From Candidatus Saccharimonadota bacterium (GTDB taxonomy: Bacteria > Patescibacteriota > Saccharimonadia > Saccharimonadales > AWTP1-31), in assembly GCA_003962975.1 (NCBI GenBank), contig RXKC01000014.1:898-64897 (forward strand): 64,000 nt of DNA. The letters are read 5' to 3'. Below are positions 2,731 to 64,000 of this stretch, one piece after another. Each line of letters begins with the position of its first letter. Within the stretch, counting starts at the first letter, position 1. The notes beneath the pieces are model-generated. The model did not search any database, was not told the origin of the DNA, and was given only the letters and a program-made list of their open reading frames with translations. A program made the position numbers and the translations under genes.

Positions 2731-3705
2731 ATGGCGGATAACAAAGAAGTCCTGGACGCAACTGCTCACGAAGTGTGGGACGTCGTCATGGTAGGTGCCG
2801 GTCCTGCAGCGTTAAGTGCTGCTGTGTACACAACTCGTGAAGACATAACGACACTTTTGTTTGAAAAAGGCGTTATTGGTGGACTTGCCGCCATAACTGA
2901 CTGGGTAGATAACTATCCTGGTTTTCCCAAAGGTATTGCTGGATTGGATTTGGCTGAGAACCTCCGTCTGCAAGCAGAACGATTCGGAGCAGTCATTGAA
3001 CTCGGCGAAGTCCTCAGTATTGCTGATAAAGGCGACCACAAAGAGCTCGATACTACGAGCGGACTAATCAAGGCTCGAACCGTACTCATTGCTACAGGCA
3101 GCGACTATAAGAAAATTGGTGTGCCTGGAGAAGAAGAATACTATGCCCGGGGTGTTCATTATTGTGCGACCTGCGATGGAGCCTTTTACCGTGACAAACG
3201 GCTCGTTGTTGTGGGTGGTGGAAATTCTGCTGTTCAAGAAGCAATCTTCTTAACGCGCTTCGCATCCCACATTGACCTACTGGTACGCGGTGATTCATTC
3301 CGTGCCAGCGATGTGCTTGTAAAGGAACTTGATAAACATAAGGACAAAATTAGCGTCCACATGCAGCATACGACTGATGAAATAGTTGGTAAGGATAACT
3401 TGGTGACCCATGTTGTAAGCACTAATAAAGCGATCGGCGAAAAAGTTGAGTTTAAAACGGACGGTGTATTTATCTTTGTCGGTCTATCGCCAAACACCGC
3501 TTTTCTTAAGGACGGCAAGGTCGAGCTCGACGAAATTGGGCTTGTCAAAACCAACCACGAACTAGAAACAACAATCAAAGGCATCTATGCAGCTGGCGAT
3601 GTTCGCAGCGGCGCCACTATGCAAATCGCTAGTGCCACCGGCGAAGGTGCGACCGCAGCTCTTAAGATACGCGAGTACATCGACGACCAAAATATGGGCG
3701 CATAG
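2731..3705 (+). CDS. trxB: Thioredoxin-disulfide reductase
   Basis: GAGPAA FAD-binding motif, CATCDG redox-active site, GGGNSA NADPH-binding motif; 324 aa. Confidence 0.92.
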   Translation: MADNKEVLDATAHEVWDVVMVGAGPAALSAAVYTTREDITTLLFEKGVIGGLAAITDWVDNYPGFPKGIAGLDLAENLRLQAERFGAVIELGEVLSIADKGDHKELDTTSGLIKARTVLIATGSDYKKIGVPGEEEYYARGVHYCATCDGAFYRDKRLVVVGGGNSAVQEAIFLTRFASHIDLLVRGDSFRASDVLVKELDKHKDKISVHMQHTTDEIVGKDNLVTHVVSTNKAIGEKVEFKTDGVFIFVGLSPNTAFLKDGKVELDEIGLVKTNHELETTIKGIYAAGDVRSGATMQIASATGEGATAALKIREYIDDQNMGA

Positions 3706-3751: not shown

Positions 3752-4370
3752 ATGGCAAAAACACCTCGCTCAGCCCCTGTGCGTGTTCAAAATAAAAATA
3801 CTAAAACGAAGCCACAGTTGAGCAGAAAAGTCCAACTGCTCATAGCTGGTGTATTGTTTGCTGTTGTGGGTGCTACCATTGTTGCTCTTCCAGTGCTTCA
3901 GATCCATCAGCCGTACCGGTAGGTATTATAAAAAGCCAGTATCCATACCCATCTAATGCTATCTTTGTAGCGCCAAACGGTAATACAGGCGCTGTCGGTA
4001 ATCAAGCCACGCCACTTCGAACGCTTAAGGAAGCTATCCAAAAATCTCCGACAGGCGGAACTATCGTTATGCGAGCAGGTGTGTACCGTGAAGAGCTCGG
4101 GACCATCACCAAGCCCGTAACCATTCAACCATATCCCAATGAAGAAGTTTGGCTAGATGGCTCAGATCCTCTCACGGGCTTAGTTCAGGACGGCAAGGCA
4201 TGGCGCAAAGACGGCTGGACAGCTGGTAATGCAATCACGCCGATGCCCGCAATGCGCCCGAAATTCGTGCCCAAGGTTTTGATGTTAGACTTGATTGGCC
4301 AACAATCGAAACCGATGCGCTTCGCGCAAAGATGAACGCCGCACGTGCCGCCGGCATTGGCCCTCGTTAA
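3752..4370 (+). pseudogene. Remnant of a signal-anchored right-handed beta-helix (DUF1565/pectate-lyase-like) protein, frameshifted and internally deleted
   Basis: The ATG at 3752 gives a TM anchor (LLIAGVLFAVVGATIVALPVL) that ends at a TAG at 3920-3922. The adjacent frame continues with ...SDPSAVPVGIIKSQYPYPSNAIFVAPNGNTGAVGNQATPLRTLKEAIQKSPTGGTIVMRAGVYRE..., a typical N-terminus for this family. A third frame then carries a plausible C-terminal tail (...TIETDALRAKMNAARAAGIGPR*). The total is far shorter than intact family members. Confidence 0.5.
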
Positions 4371-18790: not shown

Positions 18791-20755
18791 ATGACTAAGT
18801 TTGAACTTGTTAGTAACTACAAGCCGATGGGGGACCAACCTGCAGCAATCAAGCAGCTGACCGAGGGACTGAACAGTGGCGTTAAAGAGCAGACCCTACT
18901 GGGTGTAACCGGTTCCGGCAAGACTTTTGCCATGGCGAATATCGTACAAAACGTGCAACGGCCAACCTTGGTTTTAAGCCACAACAAAACACTGGCTGCT
19001 CAGCTGTATGCAGAGTTCAAGCGATTCTTTCCAAACAATGCGGTCCATTACTTCGTAAGTTACTTCGACTACTATCAGCCAGAAGCGTACATTGCTCGGT
19101 CTGACACCTATATCGAGAAGGACAGTCAAATCAATGAAGAGATCGACCGTCTGCGTCACGCCGCTACGGACGCTTTGTTGTCACGCAAGGACGTTCTCAT
19201 AGTCGCAAGCGTCAGCTGCATCTATGGCATTGGTTCAGTTGATGACTACGATGGTATGGCTGTCAGCATTGCCACTGGCGAACGCCGCGTACGCGATAAG
19301 CTCCTCCGACAATTAACTGATATCCAGTACCAACGCAATGACATCGATTTCCATCGTGGTACTTTTCGGGTCAGGGGAGATGTTGTTGATGTTTTTCCGG
19401 CCGGCGAAGAGCTAGCCTACCGTATAGAATTCTTCGGAGATGAAATCGAGCGAATTACTCAGATTGATCCACTGACTGGGGAAGTTTTAAAAGAGAAAAC
19501 GGGGCTTAAGATCTTTCCAAGCTCACACTATGTAACACCACACGACAAGCTCAAGCTTGCGCTTGGTCACATCAAGAGCGAGCTAGATGACCGCACACAG
19601 TACTTTAAAAAGAATAATTTGCTCCTTGAAGCGCAACGTATACAGCAACGTACCAACTTTGACATAGAAATGCTCGAAGAAACTGGCTTTGTAAAAGGCA
19701 TCGAAAACTACAGCCGTTATCTAACAAATCGAGAACCCGGTGAACAGCCAGCTACTTTACTTGATTATTATCCTGATGATTTCTTATTGTTCGTCGATGA
19801 GTCACATATGACCATGCCACAGATTCGGGGCATGTATAACGGCGACCGTGCTCGTAAAGAAGTTCTCGTCGAACACGGCTTTCGCTTGCCAAGTGCTCTC
19901 GACAACAGACCACTGACATTTACCGAATTTGAGCGTCATGTAAACCAAGCGGTCTACGTCAGTGCTACTCCTGCTGAATATGAGCTTAGCCGTAGCCCAG
20001 CCCCCGCCCAACAAGTTATTCGGCCAACCGGACTACTAGATCCTAAAATTGAAGTGCGCCCCACTAAAGGTCAGGTTGATGACCTGATTGCTGAGATACG
20101 CGACACGGTTGATAAGCGCCAACGCGTGCTCGTGACCACACTGACCAAGCGTATGAGCGAAGATCTTACCGAGTATCTGAAAGAGCTCAACATGAAGGTC
20201 GCTTATCTACATAGTGATGTAGATACCTTAGATCGTACTGATATTTTGCGTGACCTCCGGCTTGGCGTTTATGACGTTCTTGTGGGCATTAACTTGCTTC
20301 GAGAAGGTTTAGACCTCCCAGAAGTAAGCTTGGTTGCTATCTTAGACGCAGACAAAGAGGGCTTCTTGCGTAGCGAGCAAGCCTTGACGCAAACGGTTGG
20401 TCGTGCAGCTCGTCACCAAGAGGGTAGAGTTATTATGTATGCCGACACCATAACTGGCAGCATGAAGCGAACTATCGATGAAACGACTCGCCGCCGGGGT
20501 ATTCAAGAAGCATATAACACCAAACATGGCATAACACCTACCAGCGTATCAAAAGAAATTGAAGCTGGAATTCGACCTGATCTACCAGAGGAAGCCAAGC
20601 GAGCAAAACTTGATCTTAAGAAAATTCCAAAAGACGAATACGGTCATCTCATTAAAGATCTAACCTCGCAAATGGACCTAGCCGCAGCCAACCTTGAGTT
20701 CGAAAAAGCAGCCGAATTGCGTGACATCATCAATGATATAAAATCAAAATCTTAA
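18791..20755 (+). CDS. uvrB: Excinuclease ABC subunit B
   Basis: GVTGSGKT Walker A, DESH box, helicase motifs and a C-terminal UVR domain ([11 protein letters not shown]). I prefer the ATG at 18791 ([17 protein letters not shown]) over the TTG at 18740 in the ORF track. Confidence 0.95.
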
Positions 20756-37513: not shown

Positions 37514-38008
37514 CTAGTGAAAGCGAAGCTGATACAGAGCCATAGCAGCCGCTTGAACCACGTTATAAGATTCTTTTTGGCCTAGCATTGGTATTTCTAC
37601 ACATACATCACACAAATCAATCACTTCTTGCTCTAGACCCTCTACTTCTCGACCAAGCAGCAAGGCTACTTTATCTGGTGCCTGCATAGTTTGTAATGGC
37701 ATAGAGGTTGGCGTTTGCTCAAGCCCGATTATCTGATAACCTTCACCGCGCAGGTGAGTAATGACCGTATGTATATCAGCTTCCTGATGCCAGTCAACAT
37801 ACTGCTCCGCGCCTAACGCTGTTTTTGAAATTTGTTTGTCGAGCTTTGCCGTTAAATGAGGCAGCCTTTCATCGTGCGCTACAACTGGGTATGGGGTGTA
37901 GCCCGTCAAATAGACCTGTTCCACAGCCAAGCCTTCCGCAGTGCGCAGCAAAGAGCCTACGTTATGGGTGCTCCTCATATTGTGAGCCACAACAATAATT
38001 TGTCTCAT
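37514..38008 (-). CDS. SpoU/TrmH-family RNA 2'-O-methyltransferase
   Basis: 164 aa with the SpoU motifs NVGSLLRTA, LLGRE..G and IPM.G...S.NV. Confidence 0.8.
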   Translation of the reverse strand: MRQIIVVAHNMRSTHNVGSLLRTAEGLAVEQVYLTGYTPYPVVAHDERLPHLTAKLDKQISKTALGAEQYVDWHQEADIHTVITHLRGEGYQIIGLEQTPTSMPLQTMQAPDKVALLLGREVEGLEQEVIDLCDVCVEIPMLGQKESYNVVQAAAMALYQLRFH

Positions 38009-59752: not shown

Positions 59753-59837
59753 GCGCGAGTGGTGGAATTGGTAGACACGCTAGCCTTAGGAGCTAGTGCC
59801 GCAAGGCGTGAAGGTTCAAGTCCTTTCTCGCGCACCA
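59753..59837 (+). tRNA. tRNA-Leu (anticodon UAG), long variable arm, CCA encoded
   Basis: A manual cloverleaf fold gives a 7-bp acceptor (GCGCGAG/CTCGCGC), a D-arm GTG/CAC with an AATTGGTAGA loop, an anticodon stem CTAGC/GCTAG with loop CT-TAG-GA, a variable arm TGCCGCAAGGCGTG, a T-arm with a TTCAAGT loop, discriminator A, and CCA. Confidence 0.9.
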
Positions 59838-59843
59838 AACTAG

Positions 59844-59866
59844 AAACCGGCTCTTGCCGGTTTTTT
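59844..59866 (+). terminator. Rho-independent terminator after tRNA-Leu
   Basis: AAACCGGC-tctt-GCCGGTTT followed by TTTG. Confidence 0.75.
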
Positions 59867-61443: not shown

Positions 61444-62130
61444 CTATTTTCCTTTGAGTTCGAGGTAGCGGATAGCAGGAGCTACTGAGTAACCAATCCC
61501 AAGCAATGATGCAACGACTGCGCCGACCACTGGTGAGATAAAGCCCAAAATTTGACCGATAATACCGAGTAAGATCGTCACACCAATAACTCCCCAGATG
61601 GCTCCGGCATTACCTTTAGATAGTTCCGAGCTGCGCTTCATTGACTCAACTACACCAAGATTTTCTGACACCATGACATATGGAGCCAAGAAAAGGCGAG
61701 TAATTGCGATGAAACCAGGAACAATTAGGAGCACAAAACCTAGGACAATAACCAGGCCAGACAGAATACTGAGGCCGAGGTACTTGAGCGTAAATTTACG
61801 AGCTGTTTCTGTGAGTTCATTGAGATTGGCAGTTTTATCTTGAGCTGCCTTCAGGACTAGTCCTAGTGCCATAGTCTGTAGCACCAATGAGATGATGCCC
61901 AAGATTAAAGCCACAGCTGGTGCCATACCAAGAGCAGATTGAAACAGTAGCCCTGGGCTGAGGCTGCTGCCTACTTCAACTTCTTTACTATTAACAGCGC
62001 TTAGGACAGTCATTAACAGTGGTGCACTAGAAACAAGTGCAAATAATGGAAGATTCTTGCTCACAAGCTCAAAACTTCTCGGTACAAGGTCAAAAGCACT
62101 TGTTGTTTGTCGTGGTTGCGGTTCGGCCAT
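61444..62130 (-). CDS. Multi-pass membrane protein, unknown function
   Basis: 228 aa with about 5-6 TM helices rich in Gly/Ile/Leu; no motif recognised. Confidence 0.55.
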   Translation of the reverse strand: MAEPQPRQTTSAFDLVPRSFELVSKNLPLFALVSSAPLLMTVLSAVNSKEVEVGSSLSPGLLFQSALGMAPAVALILGIISLVLQTMALGLVLKAAQDKTANLNELTETARKFTLKYLGLSILSGLVIVLGFVLLIVPGFIAITRLFLAPYVMVSENLGVVESMKRSSELSKGNAGAIWGVIGVTILLGIIGQILGFISPVVGAVVASLLGIGYSVAPAIRYLELKGK

Positions 62131-62173
62131 AGGTAACTCCTATATATTATTGTTAATTTTGATTATGCTCCCT

Positions 62174-62191
62174 GTTGCACGCAAGTGCAAC
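62174..62191. promoter_or_regulatory. Perfect 7-4-7 palindrome abutting the -35 box (candidate operator)
   Basis: GTTGCAC-gcaa-GTGCAAC ends 1 nt before the -35 hexamer at 62193. It is also 44 nt upstream of the divergent membrane-protein gene. Confidence 0.4.
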
Positions 62192-62192
62192 A

Positions 62193-62221
62193 TTGGCAGA
62201 AAAATAGTTTGGTGGTATAAT
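62193..62221 (+). promoter_or_regulatory. Strong sigma70-like promoter
   Basis: TTGGCA (62193-62198), a 17-nt spacer, then TG-g-TATAAT (62213-62221). This is the closest match to consensus that I found in the window. Confidence 0.6.
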
Positions 62222-62228
62222 ACACAAC

Positions 62229-62285
62229 ATGATTTTAACTAATCGTCTACATCACTTGCATATTTTGCCGGAGCAGCACGGTTAG
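62229..62285 (+). CDS. Candidate leaderless leader peptide MILTNRLHHLHILPEQHG (4 His codons in 18)
   Basis: The ATG lies 7 nt after the -10, at the expected TSS. His codons are at 62250, 62253, 62259 and 62277. An intrinsic terminator follows 32 nt after the stop. This is hypothetical. Confidence 0.25.
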   Translation: MILTNRLHHLHILPEQHG

Positions 62286-62316
62286 TTTTCTTTTGCCTAG
62301 AATTCTCTAGAACAAC

Positions 62317-62342
62317 AAACGCCGGCACTGCCCGGCGTTTTT
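62317..62342 (+). terminator. Intrinsic terminator between the promoter and the hisI-like gene (candidate attenuator)
   Basis: AAACGCCGG-cactgc-CCGGCGTTT plus TT. The stem is GC-rich and followed by a 5-T run. No plus-strand gene lies upstream for it to terminate. Confidence 0.65.
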
Positions 62343-62369
62343 AGTTTTGTAAACACTTTCAATGTAGTA

Positions 62370-63044
62370 ATGGAGAACTCTATGAAATTTAATTCACAAG
62401 AATCAGATCCGTCAGCAATGCGGATCGAAGACTGGCGGCGTGCTCTGTCATACGACGATATCGTCGGTCCAGTCTATAATCAACGCGATGATCAATGGTA
62501 TATCGATCCTCGATCACGTACTAATCGCAACGCTAGCATGAGCCTCGTGGTTGGCATTCCATTTGAGCCCAGCATTGGGCTATACCGTATACCCAACGAG
62601 ATAGCCCTACAATTAGGGCTTGTTCGTGCAGAGCCTGTTGCGACGCCCCCTATGACAGGGCTAGCCTTACGAGAAATTTTTTCGTCGAGCGAACTAGACT
62701 TTAGTAAACTAACGACTCCAGACAGCGCTGTCGAACTTGTCACAGCGATTGCAGTCGACGAAGGCAAGTTGATGAACGGTGGTATTGGTGCAGGTATACG
62801 CATGGTAGGCTACGTCACTCGCGAAGCGGTAGATATGACATTTGAAAAGGGCCTAGCAACCTTTTACTCTCGTTCTCGCGATGAACTTTGGACAAAAGGC
62901 GAATCTAGTGGGAATACGCTAACTGTTCAACGAGTTCTGGCTGACTGTGATTTAGACACAGTTCTGTATGATGTCATCGCCAGTGGACCAAGTTGTCACA
63001 CCGGCATGAATTCTTGCTTCGAAATAAATACAGCCGAGCAATAA
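62370..63044 (+). CDS. hisI: Phosphoribosyl-AMP cyclohydrolase (HisI) domain protein with a ~115-aa unknown N-terminal extension
   Basis: The C-terminal ~105 aa match HisI (FYSRSRDELWTKGESSGNTLTVQRVLADCDLDTVLYDVIASGPSCHTGMNSCF) with the metal-binding Cys and Asp pattern intact. The start may be the ATG at 62382, which is preceded by GGAG. Confidence 0.8.
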   Translation: MENSMKFNSQESDPSAMRIEDWRRALSYDDIVGPVYNQRDDQWYIDPRSRTNRNASMSLVVGIPFEPSIGLYRIPNEIALQLGLVRAEPVATPPMTGLALREIFSSSELDFSKLTTPDSAVELVTAIAVDEGKLMNGGIGAGIRMVGYVTREAVDMTFEKGLATFYSRSRDELWTKGESSGNTLTVQRVLADCDLDTVLYDVIASGPSCHTGMNSCFEINTAEQ

Positions 63045-63120
63045 CAAATTCCTGCGAGCTGCTTGCACTATTCTTGTGTGGGCAGCTTTTGCAGTACAAT
63101 AGGAGTAACTATGGCACTAT

Positions 63121-64000
63121 CCACCAAACCGTATAAAGGCGCCCGCGATTTTTATCCCGAAGATAAGCGTCTACAAAAATATATTCTGAACACCTGGCGA
63201 AAAGCGGTAGAGCGTTTTGGCTACCAAGAGTACGACGCACCCCTACTTGAAAGCCTGGAGCTCTATAAAGCTAAGTCTGGTGAAGAGATCGTCAGCGAGC
63301 AAACCTACACTTTCACCGATCGCGGTGGCCGCGAAGTAGTAATTCGTCCTGAAATGACACCTACCGTTAGCCGCATGGTCGCCGCTAAGCGACAAGAGCT
63401 AGCCTATCCCGTTCGTTGGTATAGCATTCCAAACTTGTGGCGCTACGAACGTGCCCAGCGTGGTCGTTTGCGCGAACACTGGCAGCTTAATGTTGATGTG
63501 TTTGGCATTGACGGTATTGAGGCTGAGCACGAAATGATCCTGGTCACTGATGCCATCATGAGAGAATTCGGTGCTACCCGTGGCATGTACACCATCAACA
63601 TCAACAGCCGTCAGCTTATGGACTACATCATGAAAGACTACCTCGGGCTAGATTCTGTCCAGGTGCACACCCTGTCCAAGCTTATTGACCGTATGCACAA
63701 AATGGCACATGCAGAATTTGTGGCTGATGCAGATGCATTGTTTACACCTTCTCAGCGAGACGCTGGTGCCAGTGAGAAACTGCTGACAATCTTGGGCGCA
63801 AAGCAGTTATCTGATTTACCGGATCAAATTCAAAGCAGCGAAGCTGCTCAGGAACTGTCTTCATTGCTGACTATGGCTGAAGCAGCGGGCGTGACCAATA
63901 CAGTCTTCGACATCACGATCATGCGTGGCTTTGACTATTACACCGGGGTTGTGTTTGAAGTAGCTGACACTGACCCAGAAAATAACCGCTCTATGGCCGG
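63121..64000 (+). CDS. hisS: Histidine--tRNA ligase, N-terminal ~293 codons; the 3' end lies outside the window
   Basis: ATG preceded by AGGAG. Class II motifs are present (VIRPEMTPTVSRM; WRYERAQRGRLREHWQLNVDVFG). The gene is absent from the ORF track because it runs off the window. Confidence 0.93.

Follow-up and report, generated by a model that had tools for sequence, protein, structure and literature searches.

The stretch analysed here, the window, comprises 64,000 nucleotides (nt) of contig RXKC01000014.1 from a Candidatus Saccharimonadota bacterium, and near its 3′ end a short leader region, in all likelihood a histidine-responsive transcription attenuator, separates a promoter from a HisI-domain gene and hisS, the gene for histidyl-tRNA synthetase. 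Features lie on the plus strand unless stated otherwise. The leader is preceded by a sigma-70-type promoter (TTGGCA-17-TATAAT; 62193-62221) with a −35 hexamer at 62193-62198, a −10 hexamer at 62216-62221 and an extended −10 TG at 62213-62214. Matching 11 of 12 consensus positions, it is the sole site of that quality in 64 kb, all others reaching at most 10/12, and it is indeed the best promoter of the window, as an earlier note on this DNA had held. The A of an ATG at 62229-62231 lies 8 nt past the last T of the −10 hexamer (a gap of 7 nt) and opens a putative leader-peptide open reading frame (ORF), MILTNRLHHLHILPEQHG, of 18 codons plus TAG (62229-62285, stop codon 62283-62285). The mini-ORF carries the four histidine codons that had been attributed to it, at 62250-62255, 62259-62261 and 62277-62279, including the cluster CAT CAC TTG CAT (H8 H9 L10 H11; 62250-62261), the proposed site of ribosome stalling. 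An intrinsic terminator (regions 3:4), AAACGCCGG-CACTGC-CCGGCGTTT with a T5 run, occupies 62317-62342; it begins 31 nt after the leader stop codon, which corrects the distance given previously, and consists of a 9-bp stem with six G-C pairs (62317-62325 with 62332-62340), the loop CACTGC and five T residues at 62338-62342.

Downstream of the terminator lie the HisI-domain gene, presumed to be the first regulated gene (62382-63044; 220 aa; PF01502, E = 2e-28), and hisS (63111-64000; TIGR00442, E = 7e-69; PF13393), which is cut by the window end and encodes 438 aa in the near-identical contig L001; the Pfam and TIGR matches confirm the gene order proposed in the earlier note. Both genes, unlike the leader ORF, have clear Shine-Dalgarno (SD) sequences, GGAG at 62372-62375 and AGGAG at 63101-63105, respectively. 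A sigma-70 scan detected no convincing promoter in the interval that separates the terminator from the downstream window genes, nor a separate hisS promoter between the HisI-domain gene and hisS, which bears out the view that hisS lacks an obvious promoter of its own. The hexamer TACAAT at 63095-63100 was not counted, lying 10 nt before the hisS ATG with the SD sequence in between; a weak terminator-like site (63053-63067) is located between the two genes. The terminator at 62317-62342 is the only one in the window that occupies a 5′-leader position without a preceding gene end. No other attenuator was found in the window, where the sole comparably placed terminator, at 59843-59864, follows a tRNA-Leu gene (59753-59837) directly, as that gene's own terminator.

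When the HisI-domain protein was used as a search anchor, only two near-identical contigs were retrieved, L001 (JACCDG010487320.1) and L002 (JACCDT011483745.1), whose leaders are 100% identical to that of the window and thus uninformative; the anchor was therefore changed to hisS. These contigs carry near-identical copies of this part of the window in assemblies GCA_013558375.1 and GCA_013565695.1, in which contig numbers reach hundreds of thousands or millions, so that the same Saccharibacterium strain seems to be a minor component of very large assemblies. The genome sample then consisted of 80 hisS loci from species-representative genomes, all Saccharibacteria or Patescibacteria metagenome-assembled genomes, in which leaders were detected by nhmmer first and by a covariance model second; these hisS relatives assign the window to the ultra-small Saccharibacteria (TM7). 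Metagenome copies were gathered with a DNA pattern built on the leader alone, CATATNNNGCCGGANNNNNNCGGTTAG, which contains no hisS information; it hit 66 metagenome contigs, 64 of which had a covariance-model match and two of which were chance hits. Deduplication left 80 distinct leaders, 24 genome-derived (found through hisS) and 56 from metagenomes; histidine positions and footprint folds were scored on 78 of them, initiation signals on the 66 with a −10-like hexamer, and the palindrome test described below on 76.

Of the 80 Saccharibacteria species genomes, 25 contain the element upstream of hisS and on its strand according to the covariance model, and L075, with a degenerate copy, is a 26th. 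Among the pattern-found copies, 25 are followed by 1.5 kb or more of sequence, and in 23 of these hisS lies downstream on the same strand. About 80 distinct related sequences show the whole arrangement, and the comparison of regions upstream of hisS across genomes that the earlier note had suggested found the mini-ORF, its His codons and the terminator all conserved. The order of promoter, leaderless His mini-ORF, terminator and structural genes, in which that note had recognised an attenuation layout, is thus supported as a conserved arrangement across Saccharibacteria. In 45 hisS loci lacking the element no convincing alternative His mini-ORF was found; weak model matches among the element-lacking loci came from L048 (E = 0.008) and L029 (E = 0.045). 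Rfam 15 yielded no family match for the window region at E <= 10 or for four related loci at E <= 1, nor at gathering thresholds, and no description of a leader peptide or attenuator from Saccharibacteria or the candidate phyla radiation (CPR) was found in the literature searched. A His-type attenuator is not known to have been described before for Saccharibacteria, and the family is absent from Rfam 15.

An ORF running from ATG to stop is present in all 80 distinct leaders, with 11-23 codons (median 18; 17-20 in the metagenome leaders) and the consensus M-x(3-5)-(T/S)-N-Q-H-H-L-H-I-L-P-E-R-x-G-stop. Histidine accounts for 15% of leader residues in the family, and at least two His codons fall within a four-codon stretch in 76 of the 80 leaders. 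Relative to the last conserved His (position 0, 78/78), histidine is found at position −2 in 65/78 and at position −3 in 55/78 leaders; the fourth His codon of the window (62277-62279) is not conserved in the family. CAT and CAC are used 43 and 12 times at position −3, and 58 and 7 times at position −2, and because both codons occur at these positions, selection acts on codon meaning. Taken together, the histidine share, the clustering and the CAT/CAC variation remove the earlier reservation that four His codons are a modest enrichment. Other parts of the apparent peptide conservation are RNA constraints: the P-E and G-stop codons coincide with the GCCGGAG and GGUUAG helix strands described below, and the codon before Pro encodes L, S, A or Q, yet always ends in the G with which GCCGG begins. 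Three copies look degenerate or rearranged: the leader ORF of L017 (2376-2487) is joined in frame to the C-terminus of an upstream ORF, ending in SVHHKHMSPARSD before the stop; L024 (975-1082) has a 1-nt frameshift in the His region; and the L075 copy (3847-3954) has one His codon left and a weak terminator.

Within the family, the terminator stem is 97.6% paired, with compensatory changes in six of its nine pairs. Just 5′ of the leader stop codon, region 2 (GCCGGAGCAGCACGGT, 62267-62282; GCCGGAG-N5-CGG) is complementary to the terminator in every leader and, on the evidence of constrained folding, duplex energy and covariation, forms the 5′ half of an antiterminator. Its GCCGG(AG) pairs with the terminator 3′ arm, and its N5-CGG with the 5′ arm and the 3′ part of the loop, the pairs in the window being 62267-62271/62332-62336, 62273-62276/62328-62331 and 62279-62282/62321-62324, with a duplex energy of −24.0 kcal/mol. 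Cognate region-2/terminator duplexes average −24.7 kcal/mol, against −22.1 kcal/mol for non-cognate combinations (permutation p < 1e-4). On an unfitted alignment, that is, one derived from a model lacking this helix, 86.6% of the antiterminator cells are paired, nine pairs are changed on both sides and 54 cells are compensatory; these values were reached by none of 500 shuffles, and slid controls gave 28-50%. The 4-bp helix between region 2 and the terminator loop, taken alone, is 76.3% paired as compared to 66.2% in shuffles (0/500), with a covariation score of 0.292 against 0.157 (0/500). The variable N5 covaries with the terminator loop, a segment that is not itself paired in the terminator hairpin, as in L021 (GCGAAUCGG / CCGGUUCGU), L004 (CUAAUCGG / CCGAUUAG) and L033 (AUCUCGG / CCGGGAU). 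The earlier note had seen no convincing antiterminator pairing, a verdict overturned by the pairing of 62267-62282 with 62321-62336 and its covariation with the terminator loop. Between the leader stop and the terminator, the spacer hairpin CTAGA-attc-TCTAG (62298-62311) is specific to this strain, and structure in the spacer is not conserved in the family.

A third helix, the anti-antiterminator hairpin P1, was recognised in the window as an inverted repeat and in the minimum free energy (MFE) fold. Its 5′ arm (region 1; AACTAATCGT, 62237-62246), directly upstream of the His codons, pairs with a 3′ arm (ACGGTTAGTT, 62278-62287) that includes the leader stop codon (TAG, 62283-62285) and shares bases with the 3′ end of region 2. 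The family core of P1 is CUAACC:GGUUAG, often extended to 8-12 bp, and in most leaders the stop codon lies inside this conserved GGTTAG (GGUUAG in the RNA). With plain MAFFT and RNAalifold, nothing beyond the terminator and a 4-bp GCCG:CGGU hairpin emerged. The distance between the P1 5′ arm and the His codons varies, which is why P1 escaped detection; a second covariance model and per-sequence duplex tests were then used for it. In an alignment that was built with the P1-containing model, hence leans towards the helix, and includes three reverse-strand rows that are spurious as well as several leaders in another register, P1 is 80.5% paired with double changes in all six pairs, a value reached by 0/500 shuffles and compared with 14-47% in slid controls. 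Tested sequence by sequence against shuffles, the P1 duplex energies have a mean z of −2.2, with p <= 0.05 individually in 61% of leaders. Compensatory variants include L028 (UUGGCCG / CGGCCAG, the stop codon being shifted to a UAA just upstream), L057 (CUAUUCC / GGAUAG) and L077 (AAACAAAUC / GAUUUGUUU). L005 and L009 read CUAACC in the frame CTA ACC, most other leaders in the frame xCT AAC C; since the motif is retained in both frames, the constraint lies on the RNA and not on the peptide.

The geometry of the start region argues that the leader ORF is probably read from a leaderless or near-leaderless mRNA. In homologous leaders the −10-like hexamer ends 6-8 nt 5′ of the ATG in 48 of the 66 scored, it carries a TG extension in 34/66, and no SD-like motif precedes the ATG in any of the 66. 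The leaderless geometry claimed in the earlier note is thereby borne out, the RNA 5′ end itself being a prediction. In L031 and L057 a leader copy without a promoter of its own directly follows a tRNA 3′ end, and in L031 GGAG precedes the leader ATG; the tRNA 3′ sequence ahead of these two leaders (2981-3030 and 3110-3170, respectively) resembles the tRNA-Leu of the window. The same geometry was also said to occur at several other genes of the window, and about nine other ORFs of at least 120 aa were found in which a −10-like hexamer ends 6-8 nt before the start codon without an SD-like motif, for example with starts at 18791, 23304, 38117, 48611, 54208, 56332, 59947 and 60936 on the plus strand and at 38008 on the minus strand. 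An SD-like motif precedes the first start codon in only 20 of 62 long window ORFs. Together with the nine or so ORFs of leaderless geometry, this count suggests a frequent use of leaderless mRNAs in the genome.

P1, the antiterminator and the terminator are three mutually exclusive helices that covary in the family, which answers the earlier proposal to look for alternative structures by folding. In the window, fold energies amount to −26.8 kcal/mol for the antiterminator, −20.8 kcal/mol for the terminator only and −32.2 kcal/mol for P1 plus terminator in the free RNA, and the 119-nt leader RNA folds better than its shuffles (z = −3.6). The effect of a ribosome on this equilibrium was simulated by folding 78 leaders with the ribosome footprint forced unpaired and scoring the terminator in the MFE structure. 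With the ribosomal A site on the first His codon, where the antiterminator prevails in the fold, the terminator was present in 4/78 leaders, as compared to 70/78 with the ribosome at the stop codon.

These data are consistent with the following sequence of events. Transcription would start at or beside the A of the ATG at 62229, so that a ribosome could load on the 5′ end of the nascent RNA without an SD sequence and translate the 18 codons. When His-tRNA(His) is scarce, the ribosome is expected to stall at the His codons (62250-62261). As these codons lie directly 3′ of the P1 5′ arm, the stalled ribosome would cover that arm (62237-62246) and leave region 2 free to pair with the emerging terminator arms and loop; with the antiterminator formed, RNA polymerase would read through into the HisI-domain gene and hisS. 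With sufficient histidine, the ribosome would instead reach the stop codon. Since this codon is part of GGUUAG, at the 3′ edge of region 2, a terminating ribosome would cover all of region 2, the terminator at 62317-62342 could form and transcription would end after about 115 nt. In the absence of translation, P1 would sequester region 2 and the terminator would likewise form. Masking of the P1 arm or of region 2 by the ribosome follows the logic of the trp and his attenuators. On comparative and thermodynamic grounds, we thus consider it very likely that the element is a histidine-responsive, ribosome-mediated (hisL-type) transcription attenuator of the HisI-domain gene and hisS.

Several points weigh against this conclusion. 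Stalling on the last His codon gave the antiterminator only with a short assumed footprint, the terminator being present in 22/78 MFE structures with a footprint of +9 nt and in 63/78 with one of +12 nt. The free RNA, without a ribosome, showed the terminator in 37/78 leaders, and equilibrium thus already favours the antiterminator in about half of them, so that termination in the replete state would hinge on kinetics and on a ribosome placed at the stop codon. The leaders carry two to four His codons, at most two of them adjacent and never in a long run. About two thirds of the related hisS loci are without the element. As the search pattern itself specifies the last His codon, GCCGGA and CGGTTAG, the conservation of these letters is partly circular in the 56 metagenome leaders, and only the 24 genome-derived leaders show it independently. 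Finally, the transcription start, the translation of the ORF, the stalling and the histidine-dependent read-through are predictions from sequence.

Other functions may be envisaged for the same structures. The ~115-nt terminated transcript could act mainly as an independent small RNA (sRNA), the alternative raised in the earlier note, or as a trans-acting RNA or peptide resembling rnTrpL/peTrpL of Sinorhizobium, with the HisI-domain gene and hisS expressed independently of read-through. A strong promoter and an efficient terminator would indeed give an abundant short RNA, the leader RNA is more structured than its shuffles, and trans functions have been documented for attenuator-derived sRNAs and leader peptides (PMC7298713, PMC7968998). 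The element, however, always lies on the hisS strand directly upstream of his genes or hisS, the downstream window genes have no convincing promoter behind the terminator, and a simple sRNA would have no use for a conserved ORF, for His codons or for an antiterminator that covaries. An sRNA may be a secondary role of the leader, but leaves the ORF and its His codons unexplained, and as the principal function of the locus it is improbable.

Three mutually exclusive helices would also suit a terminator switch of the riboswitch type, set independently of translation by a ligand, an RNA-binding protein or, in the manner of a T-box, uncharged tRNA(His), the ORF being incidental; hisS is in fact T-box-regulated in Firmicutes (PMC2965389). 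Neither the window nor the four related loci matched the T-box family (RF00230) or any other Rfam entry within the E-value limits given above, and a T-box, with its specifier loop and T-box sequence, both lacking here, would need more than the roughly 115 nt of this element. Nor would an ORF of no importance be expected to retain, throughout 80 leaders, an ATG at the predicted transcription start, the frame, the length, His codons with synonymous variation and a stop codon in region 2, which makes such a riboregulator highly improbable. An equally remote prospect is that the mini-ORF encodes a functional His-rich micropeptide, for instance a metal-binding one, with the hairpin as its mere (partial) terminator, for although the (T/S)-N-Q-H-H-L-H-I-L-P-E-R-x-G consensus is well conserved, much of this conservation is explained by RNA constraints (the fixed G of GCCGG, CUAACC in two frames), the covarying antiterminator finds no explanation in a peptide gene, and a regulatory role is indicated by the strict linkage to his genes and hisS.

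The genes placed behind the leader in other genomes fit the attenuator interpretation. The distance from the leader end to hisS is 29-47 nt in eight genomes, and elsewhere one to three genes intervene. Those with a histidine-related annotation encode short HisG, HisG-HisE fusions, HisE, HisI and HisD (Pfam), as well as a HisH-like class-I glutamine amidotransferase, and the partial his operons behind the leader always end in hisS, as in L073:1727-3975, L045:2078-3981, L055:2589-3977 and L008:3140-3979. No hisZ was seen beside short HisG in the leader-headed his operons; histidyl-tRNA synthetase might therefore double as the HisZ partner, which is speculation. Other intervening genes code for M15 (D-Ala-D-Ala dipeptidase-like) and S66 (LD-carboxypeptidase) peptidases, an AstE/AspA-type hydrolase and SLOG/LOG-like proteins; together with the HisH-like gene they are found at L102:3329-4018, L139:7092-7793, L114:10383-11396 (minus strand), L017:3178-3885, L005:227-775, L039:2711-3253 and L103:1981-2640 (minus strand), and they may form a histidine-scavenging regulon. 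A protein of about 220 aa recurs between leader and hisS (L006:3321-3989, L017:2519-3181 and nine metagenome loci, including L084, L086, L089, L131, L133, L143 and L147). Neither Pfam nor PDB sequences yielded a match, and the protein is a candidate for a new histidine-related function. A broader proposal, which we regard as rather unlikely, is that the leader serves as the cis-sensor of a Saccharibacteria-specific histidine-starvation regulon extending beyond hisS to the truncated his pathway, the 220-aa protein and peptidases that might recover histidine from peptides of the host, and that the terminated RNA or peptide might act in trans.

The HisI-domain protein of the window carries the phosphoribosyl-AMP cyclohydrolase (PRA-CH) Pfam domain at residues 145-218 and has PDB matches to HisI/HisIE. 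Its gene most likely starts at the ATG at 62382, behind GGAG, where the 220-aa homologue P0001 also starts. The 122-aa HisI of L055 aligns to the protein from residue 96 onwards, leaving an N-terminal extension of about 95 aa for which no relatives were detectable; among 5.8 billion proteins, full-length relatives were near-identical only, and other matches cover PRA-CH alone. The presence of an orphan HisI beside hisS is metabolically odd in a Saccharibacterium.

The earlier note had also drawn attention to a perfect palindrome abutting the −35 hexamer. The repeat exists (TGTTGCAC-gcaa-GTGCAACA, 8+8, at 62173-62192, found by repeat search) and lies between a divergent membrane-protein gene (61444-62130, minus strand) and the leader promoter, but its suggested role as an additional operator finds no support in the family. 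The best inverted-repeat stem upstream of −35 averages 4.38 in 76 homologous leaders and 4.39 in shuffles; inverted repeats being no commoner than expected from shuffling, the palindrome is not part of the conserved device, and it is a lineage-specific feature, probably outside the attenuator.

CPR bacteria have tiny genomes with few transcription factors and are epibionts thought to import most of their amino acids, and to our knowledge almost nothing has been established about regulation in this radiation. The presence of an attenuator that senses histidine suggests that tRNA(His) charging is monitored in Saccharibacteria, by means of a tight coupling between transcription and the translation of leaderless mRNAs. 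The expression of the genes concerned (hisS, the partial his pathway, the proteins without assigned function and the peptidases) should then report histidine limitation, and a ready covariance model is now available for the family. Should the broader regulon proposal hold true, it would represent the first amino-acid-sensing regulatory circuit defined in the CPR and provide a way to study how epibionts perceive the nutrient supply of their host. Genetic tools are by now available for Saccharibacteria (PMC10633639).

Compared to known systems, the element resembles the hisL leader of enterobacteria (RF00514), with which it shares a leader ORF with His codons, alternative 1:2, 2:3 and 3:4 hairpins, a terminator, sensing of charged tRNA(His) by ribosome position and the control of his genes. 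The hisL leader of E. coli and Salmonella contains a run of seven His codons, and its translation is initiated at an SD sequence. The Saccharibacteria leaders, unlike hisL, have two to four His codons and a leaderless geometry and show no sequence similarity to it, hisS is their main regulated gene, and their antiterminator engages both terminator arms and the loop; membership in the Rfam His_leader family was rejected in the absence of both a match (window and four loci, as above) and a His run. In the pheM-pheST attenuator of E. coli, a terminator and a leader peptide enriched in the cognate amino acid likewise control an aminoacyl-tRNA synthetase operon. That system differs in amino acid, phylum and SD-led translation, and has no homology to the element described here. 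Outside Proteobacteria, a His leader peptide was predicted upstream of a Bacillus hisS paralogue (hisS*) and of hisZ by Naville & Gautheret 2010 (PMC2965389). It shares with the present family a His-codon peptide and a premature terminator before hisS-family genes, but belongs to Firmicutes, nothing in that paper suggests leaderless initiation, and the likeness is one of description. The hisS T-box of Firmicutes (RF00230) obeys the same logic, with read-through of a terminator at low tRNA(His) charging, yet binds uncharged tRNA directly by means of a large structured leader, whereas sensing here would proceed through the translation of His codons. In mycobacteria, leaderless polycysteine short ORFs make the downstream operon respond to cysteine (bioRxiv 10.1101/834739). 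They have in common with the Saccharibacteria element a leader ORF at the 5′ end of a leaderless mRNA, and differ in the amino acid sensed and in their occurrence in Actinobacteria. The mycobacterial mechanism is reported to be an attenuation of operon expression in which a canonical intrinsic terminator is not central. In functional terms, the element belongs to the known class of his-type leader-peptide attenuators, and what is new is a family of them in a poorly understood lineage; the mechanism being a textbook one, its value lies in the lineage and the regulon rather than in a new principle.

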